A DNA stretch of 64,000 bases, taken from assembly GCA_027051165.1 (NCBI GenBank), contig JALTZZ010000029.1, forward strand, positions 9,001-73,000. The letters run 5' to 3'. Within the stretch, counting starts at the first letter, position 1. Every line of letters begins with the position of its first letter. Made by a program: the position numbers and the translations under genes. This document shows positions 7,355 to 63,552 of the stretch, one piece after another. Source of the stretch: an archaeon (GTDB lineage: Archaea > Hydrothermarchaeota > Hydrothermarchaeia > JALTZZ01). The notes beneath the pieces are model-generated. The model did not search any database. It saw only the letters and a list, made by a program, of their open reading frames with translations, and was not told the DNA's origin.

Positions 7355-7924
7355 ATGTATAGCGAAACGCTAAGGCAGCTTATACATGCAAGCGGAATTT
7401 TTATGATCCCGATATCCCATGCAATTTATACGTATTTGGGCAAGGACTTCCTTCTATTCTTCTATTTATCTATGATATTATTTTTAGTTTTTCTCTCAAG
7501 GGTCATTAAAAAAAGCAGATACTTTTTTGAATTTTTTAAAATAGTTGATAGAAAGGAAGATTTAAAGGTTATGCCAGCAAAAGGAGCTATAAATTTTTTT
7601 ATCGGAATACTTTTAGTCAGTGTTTTTTTCGATATAAAAACGTTGTATATATCTATAGCGGTTCTCTCCTTAGGCGATTCTTTCTCAACAATAGTTGGAA
7701 AGAGATTTGGTAAGCATAAAATTCCTTACAATAGAAAAAAATCTGTAGAAGGGTTCTTTGCTTTTGTTGTTTTTGCTTTTATTGGAAGTATATTTTTCTG
7801 CGATATTAAAACGGCTCTACTCGTATCTATCTTTGGAGCACTTATAGAGTCTCTTCCATTAAGGGTGGATGACAACATATCTATACCCATATCCGTGGCT
7901 GTTTTTTTGAATTTTCTTTTATAG
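7355..7924 (+). CDS. Polytopic membrane protein of the CTP-dependent phosphatidate cytidylyltransferase / dolichol kinase-like family
   Basis: C-terminal SLGDSFSTIVGKRFGKHKIP motif plus hydrophobic helices. Confidence 0.4.
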   Translation: MYSETLRQLIHASGIFMIPISHAIYTYLGKDFLLFFYLSMILFLVFLSRVIKKSRYFFEFFKIVDRKEDLKVMPAKGAINFFIGILLVSVFFDIKTLYISIAVLSLGDSFSTIVGKRFGKHKIPYNRKKSVEGFFAFVVFAFIGSIFFCDIKTALLVSIFGALIESLPLRVDDNISIPISVAVFLNFLL

Positions 7925-8011
7925 CTTTGATTGGCAGCTGAGCAAATGACGGTTATTTTTGAAATTAAAATAAAAACATCATGTCAGCGAGAAATAGAAG
8001 AGTTATAAGAG
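7923..8011 (+). repeat. Direct repeat copy A (~90 bp) starting TATAGCTTTGATTGGCAG...ATGTCAGCGAGAAATAGAAGAGTTATAAGAG
   Basis: Near-identical to 8645-8741. Begins at the stop codon of the upstream gene. Confidence 0.8.
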
Positions 8012-8083
8012 CAAAATGCAGAAAAATCTTTAGCAGATTTTCCTTTATTTTTGTTTTTAATGTTAAGATAAGCAGAAAGCTAC

Positions 8084-8617
8084 ATGGTGGATTACGACAA
8101 GCTCGTTGATAAGCTCAAAGAAGCCCTGCTTGGGGATCTAAGAAAAGAGCTTAGGGAGTTTAAAAAGGAGGTTTCCGGCTTATTAGAGGGCTTTAGAATC
8201 GCTATTGAAACTATGAACAAGCGCATGGACTCCTTGGAAAAAGATTTAAGAGAGCTTAGGGATAGAATTGACAAAGTTAGAGAAGAGCTAACAAAAAGAA
8301 TTGATGAGACCAATAAACGCATAGATGAGACCAATAAAAGAATTGATGAACTCTCAGGAAGCTTAAACGCAAGGATAGATGAGACCAATAAGAGGATAGA
8401 CGAAACTAACGCAAGGATAGACAAGGTTAGGGAAGAGCTTGCGGCGATGATCATGGAGACAAACACAAGGATAAACGAGACTAACAAGAGGATTGACGAT
8501 CTTACTATGGAGATAAGCAATCTGAAAGCTGAATTTGAAAGGTTTAGAAAGGATCAGGAGGTAATAAAAGATATCTTAGTTAGGTTGAGAAAGCTTGAAG
8601 AAAAGGTATTTACTTAA
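8084..8617 (+). CDS. Coiled-coil protein with tandem heptad repeats (RIDETNK x ~6)
   Basis: 177 aa; repeats TKRIDETNKRIDETNKRIDE...ARIDETNKRIDETNARIDK; flanked by the ~90-bp direct repeats. Confidence 0.5.
   Translation: MVDYDKLVDKLKEALLGDLRKELREFKKEVSGLLEGFRIAIETMNKRMDSLEKDLRELRDRIDKVREELTKRIDETNKRIDETNKRIDELSGSLNARIDETNKRIDETNARIDKVREELAAMIMETNTRINETNKRIDDLTMEISNLKAEFERFRKDQEVIKDILVRLRKLEEKVFT
8296..8420 (+). repeat. Tandem 21-nt coding repeats (AGAATTGATGAGACCAATAAA-like units)
   Basis: Repeated nucleotide units encode the RIDETNK heptads. Confidence 0.7.
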
Positions 8618-8644
8618 GGGATTTCCGCTTAAAATTTGAATTAT

Positions 8645-8741
8645 AGCTTTGATTGGCAGTTGAAGATCGTTCAAATGGCTGTTATTTTTGAAATTAAACT
8701 AACAACGTCCATGCCAGCGAGAAATAAAAGAGTTATAAGAG
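8645..8741 (+). repeat. Direct repeat copy B (~97 bp) of the element at 7923-8011
   Basis: AGCTTTGATTGGCAGTTGAAGATCGTTCAAATGGCTGTTATTTTTGAAATTAAA...ATGCCAGCGAGAAATAAAAGAGTTATAAGAG. Differs from copy A by a small indel near the 5' end and a few substitutions. Confidence 0.8.
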
Positions 8742-8772: not shown

Positions 8773-9888
8773 TCAAACAATCTCTCTAACTGCAATTAAA
8801 TCGAGTTTTGACTGTGGCTTTAATATCATCTTTCTTGGGTTTAGAAAGAGGATATTTTTATCTATACACCAAGAAACCGCCTCGGTAATATCTCTGCACT
8901 CAACCTCTTCTTCAGATTTGAACTCAAGCAAAATCTCATAAACATCTCTGTAAAGCTTCTTGTTGTTTCTCTTAAGCTCGTTTAGTGCATAGATTATTAC
9001 GCTCCTCCTCTCCTCAAGAACGTTCTCGCAGAACTCTCTAAGCCTATGCCTGTTTTTAACAGCTTCTACAAGATAGATCGGCTTTCCTCCAAAGTAGTCC
9101 AGCGTGAGCTTGATCTCCTCATCGCTAAAGCCGTTTTCCCTAAGAAAGGCTTTAGCAGTCTCTAAGCTAAAGTCGTCAACGAGAATATATCTTGCTCTTC
9201 CGTGAAGCATTGCTGAGCTGTATATCTTTTCTATGAACAAGGAATCGCTTGTAACAGCAAATACATGAGCTAAGTGTAGCTCCTTTGTTAAGTGAACGAA
9301 GAAATTGAAGAGCTTGTATATCAAGAAATCGTCTATTTTAACGTCTTTTATAACCTGAAGCTCGTCGAAGATTAATATAGGGGTTTTTCCCTTATCTTTA
9401 ATGCTTTTAAGAGCATTAGTTATGTATCTGAATATCCTTCTATACTTTCTTTCGGATTCAAACATTATTTTAAAAGTTTCCCCAGCTATAGGAATTCCAA
9501 GAGATACCCTTGGTATTCTCTCCAAAATCTTTTCTAAGGTTTTCTCTTCCCTAATATCAAACATTATTTCGAAGAAATTTTCTGCACTTACAACCTCCTC
9601 GCCTCGTAGATTTATGTAGAAAGCTGCAAAATTTTCTGGAAGCTCATCAGCAACTTTTTGCATTAGCTCTGTTTTGCCTGAATTTATAGGTCCATAAACG
9701 AAAGTAATAAGATTTGGCTCCGTGCTCACAATCCTCCTTATCTCTTCCATCTCCTTCTCTCTGTTGAAGAACATCAAAACACCTCTTGAAGTTCTTCTTT
9801 TAGTCATTATTTTAACTTCATCAAGCTCCCTTTTCTTTCTTAAAAATTTGCTGCACGAAAACATATATCTTAAAGTGCAATAATTCAC
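8773..9888 (-). CDS. Archaeal ATPase family AAA+ protein (arch_ATPase-like)
   Basis: Walker A GPINSGKT; Walker B ILIFDELQ; N-terminal FFNREKEMEEI, typical of the archaeal ATPase family. Confidence 0.55.
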   Translation of the reverse strand: MNYCTLRYMFSCSKFLRKKRELDEVKIMTKRRTSRGVLMFFNREKEMEEIRRIVSTEPNLITFVYGPINSGKTELMQKVADELPENFAAFYINLRGEEVVSAENFFEIMFDIREEKTLEKILERIPRVSLGIPIAGETFKIMFESERKYRRIFRYITNALKSIKDKGKTPILIFDELQVIKDVKIDDFLIYKLFNFFVHLTKELHLAHVFAVTSDSLFIEKIYSSAMLHGRARYILVDDFSLETAKAFLRENGFSDEEIKLTLDYFGGKPIYLVEAVKNRHRLREFCENVLEERRSVIIYALNELKRNNKKLYRDVYEILLEFKSEEEVECRDITEAVSWCIDKNILFLNPRKMILKPQSKLDLIAVREIV

Positions 9889-28903: not shown

Positions 28904-28976
28904 GGGCCCGTAGCTCAGCAGGCAGAGCGCCGCCTTCGCAAGGCGGAGGCCTCGGGTTCGAATCCCGACGGGTCCA
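28904..28976 (+). tRNA. tRNA-Ala (anticodon CGC); its 3' part (28935-28976) is the provirus att core
   Basis: Cloverleaf: acceptor GGGCCCG/CGGGUCC with the G3:U70 Ala identity pair; anticodon stem CCGCC/GGCGG with loop UUCGCAA; T-arm UCGGG-UUCGAAU-CCCGA; followed by an oligo-T. Confidence 0.95.
28935..28976 (+). repeat. attL core (42 bp; 3' part of tRNA-Ala)
   Basis: Identical to 63294-63335. Confidence 0.9.
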
Positions 28977-29186
28977 TTTTGATCGTTTTGCACAAAAGAG
29001 GCTTGAGTTAAGCTTATTTTTTACAACAATTTTTTCATTTACAAATTTGTTTTCATTTACGCTATTTTTTGCGTATTTTAAAATATTTTCGAATACTTTC
29101 CGTTTAGCTCTTTTGTCTTTATATACACTATTGATGAATTCTTCAACCCTGCTCATTGTCCTAAGCGAATTTCCAGTATTATACAA
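28935..29186 (-). CDS. int: Integrase N-terminal fragment int(N) of an SSV-type split tyrosine integrase (with in-frame att core)
   Basis: Minus-strand ORF MYNTGNSLRTMSRVEEFINSV...CAKRSK followed by core-encoded WTRRDSNPRPPPCE. The same 14 aa are encoded in the same frame in the int(C) ORF at the other end. The listed 138-aa ORF 28770-29186 is a read-through across the tRNA. Confidence 0.7.
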
Positions 29187-38286: not shown

Positions 38287-38787
38287 ATGAAGCTTGACAA
38301 ACTTGACGCCACTAAGGAAAAGCTTGACAACCTTGACGAGCTTGACGCTGTGACCGTGCCCAATCCCCGCTGCAAAATCTGCCGCTCGCCATATTTGCAC
38401 GAGATAAACAGGATGCTTATTGAAGGCAAGCCATACAGCGAGATAATAGCCAAGTTCCCAGATCTCAATCTAAACAAGCAGAACATAAGCAACCATAAAA
38501 AACACTTTAATTTCATTAGACGAGGGATAGAAAAATATTACCAACAGCTTGAGGAGGGGGCTGACAAGATCGTTGACACTATAAAAATCCTCGACGATGT
38601 AATAATGAGGAGCTACGTTTTTTTAGCTGAAACGAACCCAAAAGAAAAGCCAAGAGTTTGGGAAGTTCTAACAAATGCAATATACAGGGCAGCAAGTTTA
38701 AAACATAAAATAATGGGAGACTATGATGAAGAAGAAGGTTTACTCGAAGAAATATTTGGAAAAGCTGAGGATATTGAAGAAAAATAA
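38287..38787 (+). CDS. Putative terminase small subunit (position-based) with N-terminal CTTGAC repeat cluster
   Basis: Immediately upstream of, and overlapping, terL. The 5' 75 nt contain five CTTGAC hexamers (KLDKLD..KLDNLDELD). Confidence 0.35.
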   Translation: MKLDKLDATKEKLDNLDELDAVTVPNPRCKICRSPYLHEINRMLIEGKPYSEIIAKFPDLNLNKQNISNHKKHFNFIRRGIEKYYQQLEEGADKIVDTIKILDDVIMRSYVFLAETNPKEKPRVWEVLTNAIYRAASLKHKIMGDYDEEEGLLEEIFGKAEDIEEK

Positions 38788-40087
38788 AGAATTGAAAGAA
38801 AAAATTAAAAAAGATCCAGTTATATTTTCAAAATTTCTTCTTAATTTTGACCCTCATGAAGCACAGCAACAAATAATGAGAGATACACACAAATTTATAA
38901 CAGTAGTTGCAGGAAGAAAGTTTGGTAAAACAAAATGCATGGCAGCATATGCTTTATTTTACGCTTTAACAAATCCTAAGCATAGAATACTCGTCGTTGC
39001 ACCAAGCTATTCCCAAGCGTCAATAATGTTTAGGGAAATGTATAATTTTATAAGAAGATCAATTATAAACAAATATGTGTCAAAAATACTAAAAACTCCG
39101 TTTCCACAGATATATTTCAAGAACGATGCTGAAATACATGCAAGATCAACACAAAATCCGGACCTACTGAGAGGTGAGGAAGCAAATCTAATAATAATGG
39201 ATGAAGCTGCATATATTAAAGACGATGTAGTAACCAACGTTCTTGAGCCAATGCTACTTGTAACAAATGGCAGGTGGATAAAAATATCTACACCAGCTGG
39301 TCATAATCATTTTTATGATACCTTCCTTAAGGGACTAAGTGAAGAGTTCCCAGAATATTCAAGTTATCACTTCACATCAACGGCTAATCCTTATGTAAGC
39401 GAAGACTTTATTGAACTAAAAAAGAAAGAGCTTGGAGAAAATTCAATTGCTTTTAGAACAGAATATTTAGCTGAGTTCGTAGAGGATCATAATGCAGTTT
39501 TCAGATGGTCAGATATTCAGAAAAATGTTGCAGATATTGAGCTAATTGACGGGGCTGAGCATATAAGCCGCAGCTATGTTATAGGAGTTGATTTAGCTAA
39601 ATATCAAGATTATACTGTTATCTGCGTTCTCGATGCAACTGAAAAGCCCTATCGCTTAGTTCATTTTGAGAGGTTTAACAGAAGACCTTACGCAGAGGTT
39701 ATTGAGAGAGTTAAGGATCTACATCGCAGGTTCAACGGTGCCAAGGTTCTAATAGACAGCACTGGTGTAGGAGACCCTATCCTGGAGGAACTGCAAGCTT
39801 CTATAGGAGCCGAGGGATACGTATTTACGAGTAAGAGCAAGGTGCAACTTATTCAGAAATTACAAGCTGTTATGGAGAATGGGGAAATAAAATACCCGTA
39901 TATCGAGCCGTTGGTCAAGGAACTACAATTTTTCGAATACCAATTGACGAGAACAGGCGTAAAAATGGAAGCAAGGCAAGGAATGCACGACGACTGTGTG
40001 ATAGCACTTGCATTAGCCGTGTGGGCGGCGGAGCAGTATTCAGGCTCTGCGGGTGGGGAGATCTATCTTGGCTACTCATTTTTATAA
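38723..40087 (+). CDS. terL: Terminase large subunit
   Basis: Walker A VVAGRKFGKTK; Walker B LIIMDEAAYI; C-terminal RNaseH-like nuclease segment (VIGVDLAKYQDYTVICVLD ... HDDCVIALALA). Confidence 0.7.
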   Translation: MMKKKVYSKKYLEKLRILKKNKELKEKIKKDPVIFSKFLLNFDPHEAQQQIMRDTHKFITVVAGRKFGKTKCMAAYALFYALTNPKHRILVVAPSYSQASIMFREMYNFIRRSIINKYVSKILKTPFPQIYFKNDAEIHARSTQNPDLLRGEEANLIIMDEAAYIKDDVVTNVLEPMLLVTNGRWIKISTPAGHNHFYDTFLKGLSEEFPEYSSYHFTSTANPYVSEDFIELKKKELGENSIAFRTEYLAEFVEDHNAVFRWSDIQKNVADIELIDGAEHISRSYVIGVDLAKYQDYTVICVLDATEKPYRLVHFERFNRRPYAEVIERVKDLHRRFNGAKVLIDSTGVGDPILEELQASIGAEGYVFTSKSKVQLIQKLQAVMENGEIKYPYIEPLVKELQFFEYQLTRTGVKMEARQGMHDDCVIALALAVWAAEQYSGSAGGEIYLGYSFL

Positions 40088-42742: not shown

Positions 42743-43882
42743 ATGAGAATTATAAAGAAAATAGTTCAAAATTTTACAAGAAAACAAGCAAAGTACGAGG
42801 CGGAGAAGGTTGAGATTTTTCCATTCAGCAACTTGGACAACAGCATAGCCTTCAGCTCAGGGGTTTTAGCAAACTACAGCGATTACGAGAGGCTTTATTT
42901 TACCAGCGTTGATGCAGCAACTGCGATTGATCTCATAGCCCATTATGCGATCACGGAGATCAGCTTTAGCGGTGACGAGAAAGACGTTGAAATAGCAGAA
43001 GAATTTGCTAAACGTGTTAATTTGAGATCAAGGCTTATCAATGATGTGCGAATGATGCTGATTTATGGAAATAGCTACGAATACATAGCAAACGACGAAA
43101 ATGGAGAAATAGTGTTGCAGAACCTGAACCCAAAAATGGTTACAATTAAGGTTGACAAATACGGCGAGATCCAAGCTTACAGATACCAGCCGAGCAAGGG
43201 CGTTGATCTGCCACCAGAGCGAATCATGCACTTCGCCTATGGAAGGCTTGGCAATTCACCTTACGGCTATTCGTTGGTGCACCAAGTATATGGCGACATA
43301 GTCCTTAAGCAGGCGATAGAAAAAGTTCTTGCGTATATTGCACACAGAATGAGCCACCCGCTTTTGCATGCTCGAGTGAAGAATCCTCAAAAGATCAAAG
43401 ATGTCGCAAATCTGCTTGCAAGCAGAATAAAAGACAACAGTTCAAGTGTAGAAAAAATCCAAATTTTAAACGAAATAGTGACCGATGAGGGAGTAGAGCT
43501 TCAGGTTCTCAACCCACAGTTAGATATCAGCGGAATTGTCAGAGCTTTAGAATATCTGCAGAACAAAGTTGACAAGGCTCTCAAGGTTCCCCGAATATTT
43601 TACGGTGAGCCTGAGGGAAGCAATAGGGCAAGCTCCTACAACCAGATCAGAATTTTTAGATTGTTTTTGGATTCATTAAGGGCTATTGTGAAAGAAGAAA
43701 TGGAAAAGAAGCTTTTCCCAGCTTTGAACATAGATGTAGAGATAGAATTTGAAGAGATTACAACAGAGGAAGAGATGGCATGGGCTGACATCGCAGCGAA
43801 ATTATACGAAGCAGGCATAGTGGCCACGGACGAAGCAAGAGAAATGATTGGTCTTCCACCGAGAGAAGAGGCTGAAGAATGA
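42743..43882 (+). CDS. Putative portal protein
   Basis: 379 aa; position between terL and the MuF-like gene (canonical terS-terL-portal-MuF order). No motif-level confirmation. Confidence 0.45.
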   Translation: MRIIKKIVQNFTRKQAKYEAEKVEIFPFSNLDNSIAFSSGVLANYSDYERLYFTSVDAATAIDLIAHYAITEISFSGDEKDVEIAEEFAKRVNLRSRLINDVRMMLIYGNSYEYIANDENGEIVLQNLNPKMVTIKVDKYGEIQAYRYQPSKGVDLPPERIMHFAYGRLGNSPYGYSLVHQVYGDIVLKQAIEKVLAYIAHRMSHPLLHARVKNPQKIKDVANLLASRIKDNSSSVEKIQILNEIVTDEGVELQVLNPQLDISGIVRALEYLQNKVDKALKVPRIFYGEPEGSNRASSYNQIRIFRLFLDSLRAIVKEEMEKKLFPALNIDVEIEFEEITTEEEMAWADIAAKLYEAGIVATDEAREMIGLPPREEAEE

Positions 43883-45141
43883 CAGATCCAACGAGAACAA
43901 AAATCTTAAGAGAGGAATTTGCTTCACTGCTCAAAAAACTTCCAGAAAAAGCTAAGAAAAGAGTCAAAGAGATCATAGAAACAGCATATAAAATTGATGA
44001 GGATCTTATAGAGGAAATAAAAAAAGTTATAGAAGAAGAGATGGGACCAGAAGCAGCAGAGAAAATTATAAACAAATATACAGATATATTTTGGCAGCGA
44101 GGGGCGAGTTTTGCATCAAGACAACTAAAAAAGTTTGGAATTGAAATAATTATACCAACACACCTAACGATTCTTGATGAAGAAACTATAAACCAACTGA
44201 AAAATTTGCAGTTAGAACTTGTCAGGGGATTAAGCGAAGAAACAAAGAAAAAAGTTGTTTTTCATATACGTGAGGGGCTTCTTAGAGGGGAATCAATACA
44301 GCAGATCACAAAGAGGATTACAGAGGTTCTTGGAGACGATGCGAAGAAAAGAGCGGAAAAAATAGCACGAACAGAAGCAACAAGAGTGTTTAACAAAGCT
44401 GCAGAAAGCAGATACAGCAAGGCAGGTATAAAATACTGGAGATGGCTTGCAGCGAAAGACGAGCGTTCGTGCAGCATCTGCGGATCAAGGCACGGGAAGA
44501 TATTTAAAATTGGTGATCCAACACCACCTGCACATCCAAACTGCAGGTGCACAATGGTTCCCATCTTAAGCCTAAAGAGTAAAGAGGCGAGGATTTCTAT
44601 CAAAAGAGAATCCAAGGAAATAGCTTTGCAACACTATGCAAGAGTTGTATCAAAAATACCTACGGGTAAGTTTGTTCCTGATGAGGAAAACATTAGAAAA
44701 GTTGCTCAAGCACTTAGGAGAGATGAGAGATTTAAACAGCTTGCCGAAATGTTGGAAATAGACGCTAAAGAATTCGCTAAAAGATATGCACAAGAAGCTT
44801 TGCAAATATTGAGGGAGAACTTCACAAAACATGGTATTGATCGAGCCGTTGAACTCGAAAAGCATGGCATTGTGGTCGTGAACATTTTGAGGCTAAAGAA
44901 AAGAGGGAAGCGATACATCAGCAAAAGAGGACAAGTGAACGTTCTCGCAAAAATTGGAGGTAAACATGATCCAAAATATATAAGAATTGTGCTTGATGAA
45001 AATGATAAAATAATTACTGTTCATAGAATAAGTAAAAGAAAATATGAGAAATATAAGGAGAGGTGGAAAGAAGTTGAAACTAAAAGTTCGAAAAAACGAG
45101 TTCAAAAGATCTGGATTAAAAGAAGGCTTATATTTTATTGA
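43879..45141 (+). CDS. Phage head morphogenesis protein (Mu gpF / SPP1 gp7 family)
   Basis: ARTEATRVFNKAAESRYSKAGIKYWRWLAAKDERSCSICGSRHGKIF is the conserved Mu F-like core. Confidence 0.65.
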   Translation: MTDPTRTKILREEFASLLKKLPEKAKKRVKEIIETAYKIDEDLIEEIKKVIEEEMGPEAAEKIINKYTDIFWQRGASFASRQLKKFGIEIIIPTHLTILDEETINQLKNLQLELVRGLSEETKKKVVFHIREGLLRGESIQQITKRITEVLGDDAKKRAEKIARTEATRVFNKAAESRYSKAGIKYWRWLAAKDERSCSICGSRHGKIFKIGDPTPPAHPNCRCTMVPILSLKSKEARISIKRESKEIALQHYARVVSKIPTGKFVPDEENIRKVAQALRRDERFKQLAEMLEIDAKEFAKRYAQEALQILRENFTKHGIDRAVELEKHGIVVVNILRLKKRGKRYISKRGQVNVLAKIGGKHDPKYIRIVLDENDKIITVHRISKRKYEKYKERWKEVETKSSKKRVQKIWIKRRLIFY

Positions 45142-45370: not shown

Positions 45371-46651
45371 ATGGAAATGCTATTGAAGAACTTAGAGCTT
45401 AATGAGAATAAGAACGTTTTCGTAGAGGGATATGCATCTGCAAACGTGAAAGATCTGGACGGGGACATCATAACAGAGGAAGCACTGCAGCAGGCGGCTA
45501 AGGAACTCACACAGGAGCCGTATAACAAGGTCTTCATAAACCACGATATCAGGGATATCCCGATAGGCAAGATTGTTGCTGCAGAAGTTAGGGACGGCAA
45601 GCTATGGGTTAGGCTGATGCTAAACAAAGCACACCCACAGTTTGAAACCATTTATAACAGCCTAAAAGACGGTTTTTTGGATGCTTTTTCTATTGGATTC
45701 AGAGTTCTTGAACGCAGAGGAAACAAGATAACCCGTTTAAAAATTTTAGAGGTGTCTATAGTGGGAGTTCCCGCAAATCCAGAAGCGGTTGTTGAAAACG
45801 TGTATGAGAAGGGAGCAAAGCTCATTGAAGAAATGGAAACTAAGGGCGTAGTTCCTGGACACCCGTTCAAGTATGGCAAGGATGAGCAGTCAGCATGGAA
45901 GAAGCCAACGTTAAGAGATTTCACAAACAAAAGCTGGGATGAATTAAGTGACGAGGAAAAACGCAGAATAGCAGGACATTTTGCTTGGAGCCCAAAGATG
46001 CCGCCAGAACGTTTCAGCGATCTCAAGCTCCCGCATCACGATCCCAAGACTCATAACGTAGTTTGGAGAGGAGTAGTAGCAGCGATGGCAGCATTGTTCG
46101 GTGCTCGTGGAGGCGTTGACATTCCAAGCGAGGATCGCAAAAAAGTATACAATCACTTGGCAAAGCACTACAGAGAATTCGACAGAGAGCCACCAGAGTT
46201 CAAAACACTTGAAGAGTTTGCAAGAGAATTCCTTGAGCCTGATTTTGAAGATTTAAAAAGTCCAGAGCCTCAGGAAGAAGCAGGTGATAGCATGACTGAA
46301 GAGCTTGAACGTCTGAAAAAAGAAAATGAAGAGCTTAGAAGAAAAGTGGCAGAATACGAGCAAAGAGAAAAAGAGAGATTAATAGATAAAGTGATTTTCG
46401 CAGAAACAAAGCTATACGGCAAAATAGACAAAGAAAAGAGAACTGAAGAGCTTAAAAACAAGACTGTCGTTGAGCTTAAGGATCTGTATCTCGATGTTCT
46501 TGAAAAACTTGCAGAAAAGCAGGAAAAACAGGTTACAGGCAAGGTCGAGGTTCCTCTCGAAGATTCAGAATACATTGAAACAAAATGGGGTAAAGCAGAC
46601 AAGAAAACCCTCGAAGAGCTTAGAAAAATGGTCGGTCTAACAGGTGATTAA
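45371..46651 (+). CDS. HK97-family prohead protease fused to a C-terminal coiled-coil scaffold-like domain
   Basis: N-terminal FVEGYASANVKDLDGDIITEEALQ...IGKIV...LWVRLML resembles the Peptidase_U35/S78 pattern. The C-terminal 150 aa are a charged coiled coil (ELERLKKENEELRRK). Confidence 0.6.
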   Translation: MEMLLKNLELNENKNVFVEGYASANVKDLDGDIITEEALQQAAKELTQEPYNKVFINHDIRDIPIGKIVAAEVRDGKLWVRLMLNKAHPQFETIYNSLKDGFLDAFSIGFRVLERRGNKITRLKILEVSIVGVPANPEAVVENVYEKGAKLIEEMETKGVVPGHPFKYGKDEQSAWKKPTLRDFTNKSWDELSDEEKRRIAGHFAWSPKMPPERFSDLKLPHHDPKTHNVVWRGVVAAMAALFGARGGVDIPSEDRKKVYNHLAKHYREFDREPPEFKTLEEFAREFLEPDFEDLKSPEPQEEAGDSMTEELERLKKENEELRRKVAEYEQREKERLIDKVIFAETKLYGKIDKEKRTEELKNKTVVELKDLYLDVLEKLAEKQEKQVTGKVEVPLEDSEYIETKWGKADKKTLEELRKMVGLTGD

Positions 46652-51690: not shown

Positions 51691-52161
51691 ATGGCTGAAA
51701 TAGCTTATGAAAAGATGTTGAAAGAAGATTTGATTAGATTATGCTACGAAAAAGATGAACAGATAGCAAGTTTACAAGCACAGGTTAACGAGAAGGACGA
51801 GCAGATAGCGAGCCTGCAGGCACAATTGCAGGAATACAGCACTGTGAAGCAGGAACTTGAAAACATGAAAACGCTTGTAAATACACTATTTTCAAAAGAA
51901 GAGATTAAATTTAGGTTAAATGAGAAAATAAGTATTTTAGAAGAGCAAAAACAGAACATCAAGCAGAGGATAAAAGAAATACAGAATACCATAAATTTAA
52001 CAGATTCTGAAAAAACAAAGCTGGTAGCTGGTTATAATAAGCAAATAGCACAGATAGATGACGAAATAACAAAACTCAGGATTATTTTAGATTTATATTA
52101 TTCGGAAGGGGTGAAACTGCATGACTGCACTTATAGGAAATCAGGTTTTGGAGTATGTTGA
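51691..52161 (+). CDS. Coiled-coil protein with duplicated EKDEQIASLQAQ unit
   Basis: 156 aa; tandem 39-nt duplication at ~51750-51830. Confidence 0.3.
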   Translation: MAEIAYEKMLKEDLIRLCYEKDEQIASLQAQVNEKDEQIASLQAQLQEYSTVKQELENMKTLVNTLFSKEEIKFRLNEKISILEEQKQNIKQRIKEIQNTINLTDSEKTKLVAGYNKQIAQIDDEITKLRIILDLYYSEGVKLHDCTYRKSGFGVC

Positions 52162-53017
52162 GGAAGCGAGCGAAGGACAGACGCCAGCAGATCCAGCGAT
52201 GCAGTGGATAGGCATACTTAACAATGTAAGCTTGAAGCTGCCGCAGAAATACACAACATCCCGCTATCTTGCCGACAATGCAAGCACAAACAAGCTCGGA
52301 GCTTTAATAAACGTAAAGCACAGCGAAGAGATAGAACTTAGTTTCACGGTGGAGCTACAGAGTCTCGATTTTTGGGCGAAATATTGTTTGGGAAGTGCAA
52401 CAGGAACGGCAGACAACCTACCAAGCCTATCGTTTGGCATAATCGTTGACGTGGCAGGAACTAAGCATTACGCACTTGTGAAGGGTGCAAAGTGCAAAGA
52501 GGCTAAAATTTCGATAGAAGAAGATGGCACACTGAAACTTGAAGCTACATTTAGGGCTATGGACTTTACAGGCTTCAGCACAACGGACTACATAGGTTTA
52601 GGTTCACATGCAACGGCTAATACAGCACCGCCGTTGAAGTGGAAAGATATTAGCGGTGTGCAATGGGGAGCAGCCCCTATGGATAATTACGGTTGCTACG
52701 TCAAGGGTATAAGCATAAACGTGAGCTACGATCTTAAGGAAGTTAAGGACGTCGGAGCTACCACGAGCACAGGCATAGTAACTATAGTTCCCGTTAAGAG
52801 GGAAATCAAGGTTGGATTAGTAGCAGATTTCCTAAACGTGGACATGGTAAGCAATGTAAGGAATGGAAGCAAAGCGGATCTCGCTATTACAGTTGGAGCA
52901 CAGACTATAACAGTCAAAGACGTTATCTTCCCAGAGGTTGATTTTGAATTGAAACCAGATGATCTCATAGAATACGAGTTTGAATCTCTTGAATGCACAG
53001 GAATAGCAATCGCATAA
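52121..53017 (+). CDS. Putative major tail protein
   Basis: 298 aa; position upstream of the chaperone/frameshift gene; beta-rich composition. Confidence 0.4.
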   Translation: MTALIGNQVLEYVEEASEGQTPADPAMQWIGILNNVSLKLPQKYTTSRYLADNASTNKLGALINVKHSEEIELSFTVELQSLDFWAKYCLGSATGTADNLPSLSFGIIVDVAGTKHYALVKGAKCKEAKISIEEDGTLKLEATFRAMDFTGFSTTDYIGLGSHATANTAPPLKWKDISGVQWGAAPMDNYGCYVKGISINVSYDLKEVKDVGATTSTGIVTIVPVKREIKVGLVADFLNVDMVSNVRNGSKADLAITVGAQTITVKDVIFPEVDFELKPDDLIEYEFESLECTGIAIA

Positions 53018-62417: not shown

Positions 62418-63335
62418 CTAACTCACCAGTATAGGGAACTTGTCCACAACTTTCTTGTAGTGCTCTATAGCTTGCATCCTCAGAAACAAATAATGCTTGC
62501 TCCCTACTTTAACGCTCGCCCTTCCTTGCATAAAATCGGCCACACTTTCAGGGATATTATGCAAAACGAAAAAATTATCAACCCATTTTCTTATAGCATT
62601 TGCATCAATACGTGAGTTAACAGGAGGCCTCCATTTTCTTGGGTTAAGTCTCGCATACCATGATTTATATTTAAGCTTTTTATTTATAGATCTCAACTTC
62701 TCAGCAAACTCCGAAGGAAAGACTGCTATAAAACTTCTTTTTGTTCCTCTTGAAAATTCTACCATAGGATATGCCGCCACGTTGCCGTGATATTCTATTT
62801 TATTCTTGTCAAAATTTCGGAGAGCCAATATGGAAGGTTTTGCTCTCAATCCTGTAAAAACAAGCCATTGGTATAGAATTAAAGTATCTTCATCCCACTT
62901 CTCTTTGATTAAATAGTAACCTTGTTTTATCTCTTCATTAGTTAGATAAACTTCTCTTACACCAGATTTTGGGATTTTAAGAAAGCTTGAAGATAGAATA
63001 TCCATTGCTATCCATCTGTTCATCATCTCTCTTTCAACGAGATAGTGAATTAAGTTCCTCACGGCTCTAACGAAACGTTCTTTATCCGTGCATTTATAGA
63101 AAGCCTTCCTAAGATCTTCTTTTGATTTAATGGGTTTATCTAAGTATTTATCAAGGATTTTTATTATTTCGTTAAGATATTCTTTACTCGTTATTTTTGG
63201 CTTCTTTTCTATTGTTAGGTAGTTTATGAAGTCTTTTTCATCAACATCATACCAATTTATTATGTATCCTTCTATTTGAATTATATTTTCATTTTCGCAA
63301 GGCGGAGGCCTCGGGTTCGAATCCCGACGGGTCCA
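62418..63335 (-). CDS. int: Integrase C-terminal fragment int(C) of an SSV-type split tyrosine integrase (with in-frame att core)
   Basis: The minus-strand ORF encodes the core peptide WTRRDSNPRPPPCE, then NENIIQIEGY...FTGLRAKP...HNIPESVADFMQGRASVKVGSKHY (recombinase R / H..R / Y residues). Upstream of the core, the listed ORF start MLILCKTNKK is host-derived read-through. Confidence 0.75.
   Translation of the reverse strand, partial: WTRRDSNPRPPPCENENIIQIEGYIINWYDVDEKDFINYLTIEKKPKITSKEYLNEIIKILDKYLDKPIKSKEDLRKAFYKCTDKERFVRAVRNLIHYLVEREMMNRWIAMDILSSSFLKIPKSGVREVYLTNEEIKQGYYLIKEKWDEDTLILYQWLVFTGLRAKPSILALRNFDKNKIEYHGNVAAYPMVEFSRGTKRSFIAVFPSEFAEKLRSINKKLKYKSWYARLNPRKWRPPVNSRIDANAIRKWVDNFFVLHNIPESVADFMQGRASVKVGSKHYLFLRMQAIEHYKKVVDKFPILVS
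63294..63335 (+). repeat. attR core (42 bp partial tRNA-Ala copy)
   Basis: Identical to 28935-28976. Its flank 63336-~63400 is ~80% similar to 28977-~29045. Confidence 0.9.
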
Positions 63336-63552
63336 CTTTTTATTTGTTTTACACAAAATAAGCATGAATTAAGCTTATTTTTTGCAAAATTATTTTCATT
63401 TTTAACATTATTTTTGCACTTTTCTATAGATTCTAAATAATCCTCTTACAGAAAGCATAAATATTACTGGAGTATAGAAAAGATAAATTTATCAAAATTT
63501 TTATGCGTTGGAAAGATTGATCCCTTAATCTCAAGCCACATCTTACAAGAGA

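Follow-up and report, generated by a model that had tools for sequence, protein, structure and literature searches.

A direct repeat pair around a single coiled-coil gene in an archaeon as a possible scar of recombination

We describe two imperfect direct repeats of about 95 nt, copies A and B, that lie on either side of a single paREP15-like coiled-coil gene in an archaeon. The host locus is part of a 64-kb stretch of DNA, here called the window, whose positions are used throughout (Table 1). We give an even chance to the reading that A and B are a recombination scar, i.e., an attL/attR-like duplicated junction around an acquired gene. The locus does not look like a new RNA gene or a new family of mobile elements.

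Table 1. Features of the repeat-bracketed locus, in window coordinates.
Feature	Position	Strand	Length, evidence and remarks
Dolichol kinase-like gene (DolK)	7355-7924	+	Last gene syntenic with related genomes
Repeat copy A	7919-8011	+	93 nt; alignments, shuffle-tested pattern searches, end of synteny at ~7912-7921
AU-only hairpin TTATTTT-TGAAATT-AAAATAA	7953-7973	either	In copy A; counterpart at 8682-8702 in copy B with one stem mismatch
Unique AT-rich spacer	8012-8083	+	26% GC; separates copy A from the start of the coiled-coil gene; sequence and composition
Coiled-coil gene, paREP15-like	8087-8617	+	176 aa from GTG 8087; ATG 8084 also possible
Repeat copy B	8641-8741	+	101 nt; alignments; present in contig L006 of a second strain
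Archaeal ATPase gene	8773-9774	-	PF01637 and MJ1010-like C-terminal domain; convergent with the coiled-coil gene; start uncertain, ORF to 9888

The two copies have the same orientation and share 84 of 93 aligned bases in a global alignment. They differ by nine mismatches (C/T, G/A, A/G, G/T, A/C, A/C, A/G, T/C and G/A) and eight gap columns, corresponding to indels of 7 nt and 1 nt where a single indel had been predicted. Identity over the ungapped columns is 90%. Exact blocks of 19, 18, 14 and 12 nt are common to both copies; the 19-nt block forms their left end and is followed by ~75-80 nt at ~88%. Pattern searches gave two matches for the 27-nt 3' block against 0.00 expected from 100 shuffles, and two for the 18-nt 5' block against 0.12 expected, which rules out a chance origin for both outer blocks. 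By itself, the AT-rich 18-mer in the centre does not stand out from chance, as 23 of 100 shuffles also gave two matches. A possible leftward extension of the pair to 7907/8629 is weak, with 10 of 20 positions identical (p ~0.03), and may be due to chance. Alignment and shuffles thus confirm the original prediction of a direct repeat pair bracketing a coiled-coil gene, with true edges slightly wider than the 7923-8011 and 8645-8741 first proposed.

Copy A starts with TTATAG, the final sense codon and TAG stop (7922-7924) of DolK. The notion that each copy begins right after a stop codon is therefore exact for A, with the stop inside the repeat, but holds only roughly for B. Copy B begins 24 nt past the coiled-coil stop, and the convergent ATPase gene has its own stop 31 nt downstream of B. 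The copies are non-coding. Six-frame translation yields no reading frame through both of them because the 1-nt indel shifts the frame. A 43-aa ORF in copy B has no homologue among 1.84 billion representative proteins and its peptide has no Pfam match. The non-coding character that had been predicted for the conserved 3' part is upheld by this loss of frame and lack of homologues.

The sole substantial ORF between the copies is, as predicted, 8084-8617 with its 21-nt tandem units, which form two arrays of 2.7 copies each. Comparison with homologues makes GTG 8087 a likelier start than 8084, and the stop codon occupies 8615-8617. Both termini of the encoded protein are conserved, and a run of RIDETNK heptads lies between them. 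It belongs to a conserved family labelled paREP15, in which the heptads are variable. Its best matches are only 45-52% identical, and many of the named ones come from thermophilic bacteria (e.g., Sulfurihydrogenibium, Caldimicrobium and Thermodesulfovibrio) or from bacterial-type contigs. Pfam matches are of coiled-coil type only, and PDB, NCBIfam and PADLOC returned just generic coiled-coil matches. There are no relatives of the gene in viral contigs. An exact protein look-up of the coiled-coil protein, with its two candidate starts, and of the ATPase gave no record. The paREP15-like coiled-coil family is widespread and uncharacterised, and we found nothing on paREP15 in the literature. The flanking genes have orthologues that are 61-96% identical in the sister lineage GCA_054046405.1. 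An insert with no close orthologue and with mostly thermophilic-bacterial homologues, next to neighbours conserved at this level, fits an acquired gene.

Gene order supports a junction at the left repeat. It matches two related loci (L002 and L003) from ~200 and a third (L004) from ~6339, in each case up to the stop of DolK, which ends two codons before its L004 orthologue. Synteny with all three stops at ~7912-7921, the left edge of copy A. In these loci an ATP-grasp gene follows DolK at once, with neither the repeat nor the coiled-coil gene. Their whole right flank differs as well (ATP-grasp, CysRS), so they do not represent a clean empty site. The ATP-grasp and CysRS genes of this species are on another contig. 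We looked for the element there too, at what would be the opposite side of the rearrangement, and the 166 nt covered at the ATP-grasp/CysRS locus from the same sample contain no copy. A protein-based search of the genome contigs found no PEPC relatives. The synteny break could be a larger rearrangement unrelated to the repeat.

A second strain, 98.2% identical, provides a further observation at the right repeat. Its contig L006 begins at window position 8640, one base before copy B, and carries a copy B that is identical save for the last base. Such a start suggests that this edge of the element is again a junction, and the contig break hints at a further copy or a haplotype. The break is left unexplained by A and B themselves, because their left ends have only 19 exact nt in common, which is too short.

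Apart from A and B, the 64 kb contain just one long dispersed direct repeat. It consists of the att sites of a provirus in tRNA-Ala, in which a 46-nt stretch at 98% leads into 77 nt at 78%. A and B resemble the attL/attR sites of archaeal integrative elements with SSV-type tyrosine recombinases, such as this provirus, in that direct repeats of ~100 nt bracket an insert, the pair begins at the 3' end of a host gene and a near-exact core gives way to a diverged extension. The identical core expected of att sites is represented by the 19-nt exact block, within copies that are 90% identical overall. In contrast to such elements, the exact core is short, the target is the end of a protein gene rather than a tRNA gene, and the insert is a single gene of ~630 bp with no integrase. 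The coiled-coil ORF is all that lies between the copies. Against a scar, then, stand the dissimilar right flank of the related loci and the unexplained L006 break noted above, the small insert, the lack of a recombinase between or next to the copies, and the 90% identity, which requires either age or unequal partners. An SSV-type integrase at 62418-63365, that of the provirus 54 kb away, is the sole integrase seen among the genes examined, and Pfam assigns the genes up to ~5 kb to the left and right to other families. Insertion of a gene by recombination between repeats was one of two interpretations originally offered, and it is the one that fits best, since synteny ends at the edge of A, the insert has no close orthologue and the provirus, a proven integration in the window, left a similar pair. 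The other interpretation, a duplicated small-RNA or regulatory element, fared worse, as set out below.

We propose that the paREP15-like gene, together with a promoter of its own, may have arrived as the single gene of a circular or foreign DNA that recombined into the short region just after DolK. A single crossover, site-specific or between short homologous or near-homologous stretches, would duplicate the crossover sequence, hence a ~95-nt stretch on both sides in the same orientation. The 90% identity could then stem from later divergence or from donor and recipient versions that were already unlike. With the insert in place, DolK and the new gene would each keep a terminator-like signal before the convergent ATPase gene. 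Recombination between the direct repeats could also delete the gene and so give rise to strains with and without it. In this the proposed event resembles Campbell-type single-crossover insertion, where the recombining segment is duplicated as direct repeats and the insertion is reversible between them, except that here we infer the mechanism from its end product alone.

The terminator-like signal is the AU-only hairpin (Table 1). Intrinsic termination in archaea relies on an oligo-T run of at least five T shortly after the stop codon. On the + strand the hairpin holds a T5 tract, located 31-35 nt after the DolK stop in A (7955-7959) and 67-71 nt after the coiled-coil stop in B (8684-8688), and on the - strand it holds T5/T4 tracts. 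Since each copy has a T5 within an AU hairpin, a terminator-like signal would follow both DolK and the new gene. The hairpin and its T tracts are a candidate bidirectional oligo-T terminator. As in archaeal oligo-T terminators or duplicated 3' UTRs, a T5 comes soon after the stop of each upstream + strand gene, and the T-rich runs of the opposite strand face the convergent gene. However, A and B are far longer than a terminator needs, and their best-conserved blocks lie outside the T tract. The spacer downstream of copy A may be the coiled-coil gene's own promoter. It includes a run rich in T, and ~26 nt upstream of the start codon there is a TATA-like TTTTTAAT; such a promoter would produce a leaderless or short-leader mRNA.

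A and B are the only copies found. Searches with blastn-short and nhmmer detected no third copy in the 64-kb window or the fetched loci, nor in a further contig of the same sample, of which 2.8 kb were covered. The conserved blocks are absent from 185,579 species-representative genomes and from the viral contigs of IMG/VR in exact-pattern scans, and blastn found no match in plasmids and phages. JGI metagenomes gave 25 pattern matches, all attributable to chance, as none extends past the 18-mer seed with a two-copy profile. The search for additional copies proposed with the original prediction was thus run on ~64 kb plus ~7 kb of the species' sequence and on public collections, and it added none.

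This result counts against the foremost alternative, that the element belongs to a dispersed repeat family (MITE- or REP-like) or is the site of a cassette system, with the coiled-coil gene as the unit between two sites. We consider it unlikely, though the start of L006 at the left edge of B and the synteny break at the same edge of A do make one and the same element end a junction twice. The termini are weakly complementary (TTATAGCTTT versus AAGAGTTATAA), but only at ~10 of 13-14 positions by Watson-Crick pairing and in AT-rich sequence. Also on the side of this reading, an Archaeoglobus MAG has a homologue of the enclosed gene within a variable, toxin-antitoxin-rich island. Homologues elsewhere (L005, L033 and L034), however, are not flanked by similar repeats or by any long direct repeats. 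Repeats within the Archaeoglobus island were rejected as sites because they look like paralogous gene fragments. Like MITE and REP repeats, A and B are short, intergenic, AT-rich and non-coding, and their ends show some complementarity. They differ in being known from two adjacent copies rather than many, and they lack both a target-site duplication and convincing terminal inverted repeats.

More doubtful is the proposal that A and B are two selected non-coding units, either an sRNA gene present twice or a cis-regulatory 3' module made up of a terminator and a protein-binding site. The exact blocks (19, 18 and 12+14 nt) are parted by more variable stretches, which speaks for it; the differences number only ~11 and their clustering is not significant, the chance that none falls in the first 19 nt being ~0.08 by our own estimate. 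Copy B is the same, save its last base, in two strains that differ by 1.8% overall. At the left end of the copies there is a TATA-like TTTTATAG/AATTATAG, but a transcript from the predicted start would be stopped early by the T5 ~10 nt past it, and no + strand gene lies downstream of copy B to be regulated.

In favour of such units, a closing stem of 10-13 bp with G-U pairs forms in both copies and on the + strand only, and one double change (TGAC/GTCA to TGGC/GCCA) preserves a 4-bp helix. Against this, copy A folds better than shuffles (z -2.8) and copy B does not (z +0.1), the interior folds differ, and no fold is common to both. Single-sequence and consensus folds of both strands are not convincing, and the + strand consensus fold of A and B contains no compensatory pair. 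Rfam 15 covariance models, including those for archaeal C/D and H/ACA sRNAs and for riboswitches, have no gathering-score match in the region; at E<=10 the repeats match no family, and just two chance miRNA matches appear. Visual inspection shows no conserved C/D or ACA boxes common to A and B, and C/D-box, H/ACA, replication-origin (ORB) and partition-site readings were dropped on inspection. The duplicated small-RNA or regulatory element of the original prediction is therefore unsupported, there being no Rfam match, a fold signal in copy A only, no compensation and no more copies. The covariation and structure check suggested for it revealed neither a shared fold nor a compensatory change in the + strand consensus.

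A more speculative variant of the cassette idea, which we regard as a long shot, makes the ~95-nt element the site of a novel archaeal single-gene cassette system, integron-like in layout but not attC-based, with crossover at the left-end TTATAGC. Such a system would shuttle paREP15-type and perhaps other genes among thermophiles of both domains, archaeal and bacterial. Its activity would then have left two traces here, the break in synteny at A and the break in the assembly at B.

It is highly improbable that the copies are genes for very small leaderless proteins, starting at 7946 in A (MTVIFEIKIKTSCQREIEEL) and at 8675 in B (MAVIFEIKLTTSMPARNKRVIRVFSFRHDL). An ATG does lie ~26-33 nt after the TATA-like motif in both copies, and the first 12 codons are similar between them. 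However, the 1-nt indel alters the whole C-terminal half while the DNA there is still 30/32 identical, so that conservation is at the DNA level. The T5 tract also falls within the ORF. Together with six-frame translation, Pfam and the search of representative proteins, all of which speak against it, we reject this reading.

We give almost no credence to the last alternative, a two-site integron-type cassette array (CALIN) with the repeats as attC sites. The core motifs of attC are R'' RYYYAAC and R' GTTRRRY. The locus has the outline of such an array: one ORF of 176-177 aa is bracketed by two sites of ~100 nt, within the ~60-140-nt range and in the ORF's own orientation, and their termini are partly complementary. 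Close to the 3' end, GTTATAA is similar to the R' core. By inspection, though, it fits R' at 5/7 positions and TTATAGC fits R'' at 4/7, the conserved AAC/GTT pair is broken (AGC versus GTT), and the candidate R-L box spacers differ in length (6 and 13 nt). When the two copies are folded as single-stranded DNA, with DNA parameters, neither strand of either copy does better than shuffles (z +0.10 to -1.25, -5.8 to -8.4 kcal/mol). These folds contain only a terminal stem of 10-13 bp that needs G-T pairs, in place of the long imperfect attC hairpin, in which R''-L'' pairs with L'-R'. Archaeal integrons have been reported, most of them CALINs (Ghaly et al. 2022, PMC9668308), for which a nearby IntI is optional. 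No IntI-type integrase is found among the genes examined here, and the sites number only two. With no stable single-stranded hairpin, no match to the core consensus and no IntI among those genes, the attC reading is largely refuted. A template/variable repeat (TR/VR) pair of a diversity-generating retroelement was likewise discarded, as the mismatches are not confined to adenines of one copy and the neighbours examined include no reverse transcriptase.

No new kind of RNA or mobile element emerges from this locus, which would indicate a new family of recombination sites only if more copies were found at other gene boundaries. If the pair is indeed a recombination scar, it would be a small, clean case of an uncultivated thermophilic archaeon gaining a single gene, probably across lineages. 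The gene would have been placed at a rearrangement-prone gene end, where the duplicated junction marks the event and permits the gene to be lost again. Such a case would be of use for genome annotation and for the study of gain and loss in the paREP15-like coiled-coil family.

The archaeal chromosome in the window (~36% GC; genes for a short ERCC4/XPF nuclease, SRP19, an archaeal-type PEP carboxylase, a thermosome and PF01637 ATPases) carries two copies, A and B, of a ~95-nt direct repeat that bracket a coiled-coil gene (Table). Aligned, the copies agree at 84 positions, differ by 9 substitutions and contain two indels, of 7 nt and 1 nt; the exact blocks measure 19, 18, 14 and 12 nt. The window has exactly two occurrences of a 27-nt outer block and two of an 18-nt outer block (0.00 and 0.12 expected from shuffles, respectively), and the central AT-rich block by itself is not significant against shuffles. 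Alignment and block counts thus confirm the repeat pair of the original prediction, with slightly corrected limits; its single indel becomes two. Copy A overlaps the stop codon of the dolichol kinase-like gene DolK, as proposed, but copy B begins 24 nt past the coiled-coil stop rather than directly after it.

Coordinates of the repeat locus and of the provirus used as a yardstick
Feature	Position	Strand	Length	Remarks
DolK, dolichol kinase-like gene	7355-7924			directly before copy A
Repeat copy A	7919-8011		93 nt	
AT-rich spacer			72 nt	between copy A and coiled-coil gene
Coiled-coil gene	8084/8087-8617		176-177 aa	
Spacer			23 nt	coiled-coil gene to copy B
Repeat copy B	8641-8741		101 nt	
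Convergent ATPase gene	8773-9774/9888	-		stop 31 nt beyond copy B
4-bp helix arms, copy A	7947-7950/7983-7986			
4-bp helix arms, copy B	8676-8679/8713-8716			
Tailed archaeal provirus	28904-63414		~34.4 kb	integrated in tRNA-Ala (28904-28976)
att core repeats	28935-28980 and 63294-63339		46 nt	98% identity
att extension	28977-29053 and 63338-63414		77 nt	78% identity
Terminase	38723-40087			provirus
Portal	42743-43882			provirus
Mu-F-like	43879-45141			provirus
Prohead protease	45371-46651			provirus
Tail tube	52121-53017			provirus
SSV-type 'Archaeal phage integrase'	62418-63365	-		overlaps right att

Synteny breaks at the left edge of copy A. Sequences of the sister lineage are L002/L003 (GCA_054046405.1) and L004, a 2.7-kb contig that spans M50-DolK only. 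The gene order CutA1 ... ERCC4-TtuA-M50-DolK is conserved in L002/L003 (protein identity 61-96%; sister-lineage DolK 72-76%). The match to the window ends at the DolK stop, which in the sister lineage is followed at once by a convergent ATP-grasp gene and then, in L002/L003, by CysRS. The window's own species has ATP-grasp and CysRS on a different contig, L037, where no element copy occurs in the 166 nt past the ATP-grasp stop. The left edge of copy A therefore coincides with a junction, specific to this lineage, of a rearrangement or an insertion. DolK takes its stop TAG from the first bases of the repeat, which places the junction within the last codons of the gene. The window DolK ends two codons before its L004 orthologue (window 7907-7924, L004 1570-1591). 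Repeat and coiled-coil gene are both absent from L002, L003 and L004, but the right flank also differs, and these loci are not a clean empty site.

Within the enclosed gene a 21-nt unit forms two short arrays, in keeping with the original prediction. The well-defined but uncharacterised family of this gene (proteins P0066-P0073), some members of which are labeled 'paREP15, putative coiled-coil protein', has a conserved N-terminus (MDxEKIxEKLK...GEIREEFREFK...G.L.GF.LAIE) and C-terminus (...R.xxLExKVF) separated by a variable number of RIDETNK heptads. PDB, NCBIfam and PADLOC returned generic coiled-coil matches only. Members occur in thermophilic bacteria (Sulfurihydrogenibium, Thermodesulfovibrio, Caldimicrobium, Thermodesulfatator) and archaea (Archaeoglobus, Pyrobaculum), a distribution that suggests transfer between domains. 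One of the closest homologues lies on a bacterial-type contig adjoining ClpS and ClpA/B genes, and none was found in viral contigs. The best matches are only 45-52% identical, and the search database lacks a close orthologue although it includes proteins of the sister archaeal genome (P0003, P0188). This fits acquisition of the gene within the lineage of the window, but coiled coils diverge fast. The homologues examined elsewhere have no comparable flanking repeats. On bacterial contigs with homologues, neighbouring intergenic regions contain repeated REP-like palindromes (CATTGCGAGC...GCGAAGCAATC) that have no sequence relationship to the element (L005 4687-4860, L033 ~960-1110). An Archaeoglobus sp. 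MAG (GCA_017656475.1, L034 1-9496) has two paralogues (L034 3074-3496 and 7999-8658) within an island packed with toxin-antitoxin pairs (VapBC, ParE, HicAB); repeated segments of ~80-150 nt there resemble paralogous gene fragments.

The only other long dispersed direct repeat in the whole window is the att pair of a provirus. Its integration into tRNA-Ala is proven and produced a ~120-nt direct repeat in which the core is near-exact and the extension has diverged. Copies A and B have the same layout on a smaller scale. With the synteny break and the missing close orthologue, this makes a recombination scar, close to the gene insertion that was one of two original proposals, the best-supported account of the repeat pair, and we give it about an even chance of being correct.

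The pair could instead be part of a repeat family, dispersed or made up of cassette sites, whose other copies went unseen; we consider this unlikely. There is no third copy in the 64-kb window, and exact-block scans of 185,579 species-representative genomes and of IMG/VR gave no match, nor did plasmid and phage collections; the 25 matches in JGI metagenomes are all confined to the seed. For the window's species, these searches covered ~71 kb. Elsewhere the element occurs only in same-species sequences. Copy A is present in L001, a Logan contig from the window's own sample (SRR10312489) with 100% identity to the window; the contig stops at 8038, 27 nt past this copy. A contig of a 98.2% identical second strain (L006, GCA_027059345.1) carries copy B unchanged but for the last base and begins at 8640, a single base ahead of the sequence that the copies share. 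Copies A and B have only 19 exact nt in common at the left end. A match of this length should not break a normal assembly, and we infer a further context for a B-type copy in the second-strain sample, perhaps an additional copy, perhaps a haplotype that has a different left flank. Within the ATPase gene, L006 has a run of N at ~9096-9140 and L007 begins at 9140. Breaks at one place in two independent assemblies, both of closely related strains, suggest that strains are heterogeneous or that paralogues interfere within the PF01637 ATPase gene.

That the copies are an RNA or a regulatory module kept twice by selection is more doubtful still. Plus-strand RNA of both copies folds with a 10-13 bp closing stem (UUAUAGCUUU paired with AAGAGUUAUAA, G-U pairs included), whose bases are identical in both copies and hence uninformative on selection. 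The interiors fold differently, and the fold is better than shuffles for copy A (z -2.8) and no better for copy B (z +0.1). The plus-strand consensus fold of the two copies has 17 pairs and zero compensatory changes. Rfam yielded no match at its gathering threshold; at E<=10 just two miRNA matches appeared, both due to chance. These results lend no support to the originally suggested small-RNA or regulatory element. Two of the nine substitutions are complementary (TGAC/GTCA to TGGC/GCCA) and keep a 4-bp helix that encloses an AU-only hairpin (TTATTTT-TGAAATT-AAAATAA); a single helix-keeping double change is too little evidence to build on.

Two independent junctions at the same left edge of the element hint at a non-attC single-gene cassette system with its crossover point there, which we regard as very unlikely. 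Tiny protein genes in the copies are more improbable again: as originally noted, no reading frame is kept across the two copies, which the 1-nt indel puts out of frame while the DNA beyond it remains identical at 30/32 positions, and the 43-aa ORF of copy B has no Pfam match or homologue among 1.84 billion representative proteins. Integron attC sites, considered because archaeal integrons have been described, mostly without integrases (PMC9668308), are scarcely credible, since single-stranded DNA folding beats shuffles on 0/4 strands, the core motifs do not fit and no integron integrase (IntI) was found among the genes examined.

The element matches no described family, and direct repeats that bracket an acquired gene at a rearrangement junction are a well-known phenomenon. 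As a recombination scar, the locus would have arisen when a DNA segment with the coiled-coil gene and its own promoter, suggested by a TATA-like TTTTTAAT ~26 nt before the start codon, entered just after DolK by a single crossover at the ~95-nt sequence, thereby duplicating it on both sides. Each copy has a T5 tract within the AU hairpin, and the other strand has T-rich runs. Given general knowledge of archaeal oligo-T termination, DolK and the coiled-coil gene would each still precede a putative terminator-like signal ahead of the convergent ATPase. Recombination between the direct repeats could also remove the coiled-coil gene again, a possible reason for the assembly break in the second strain.
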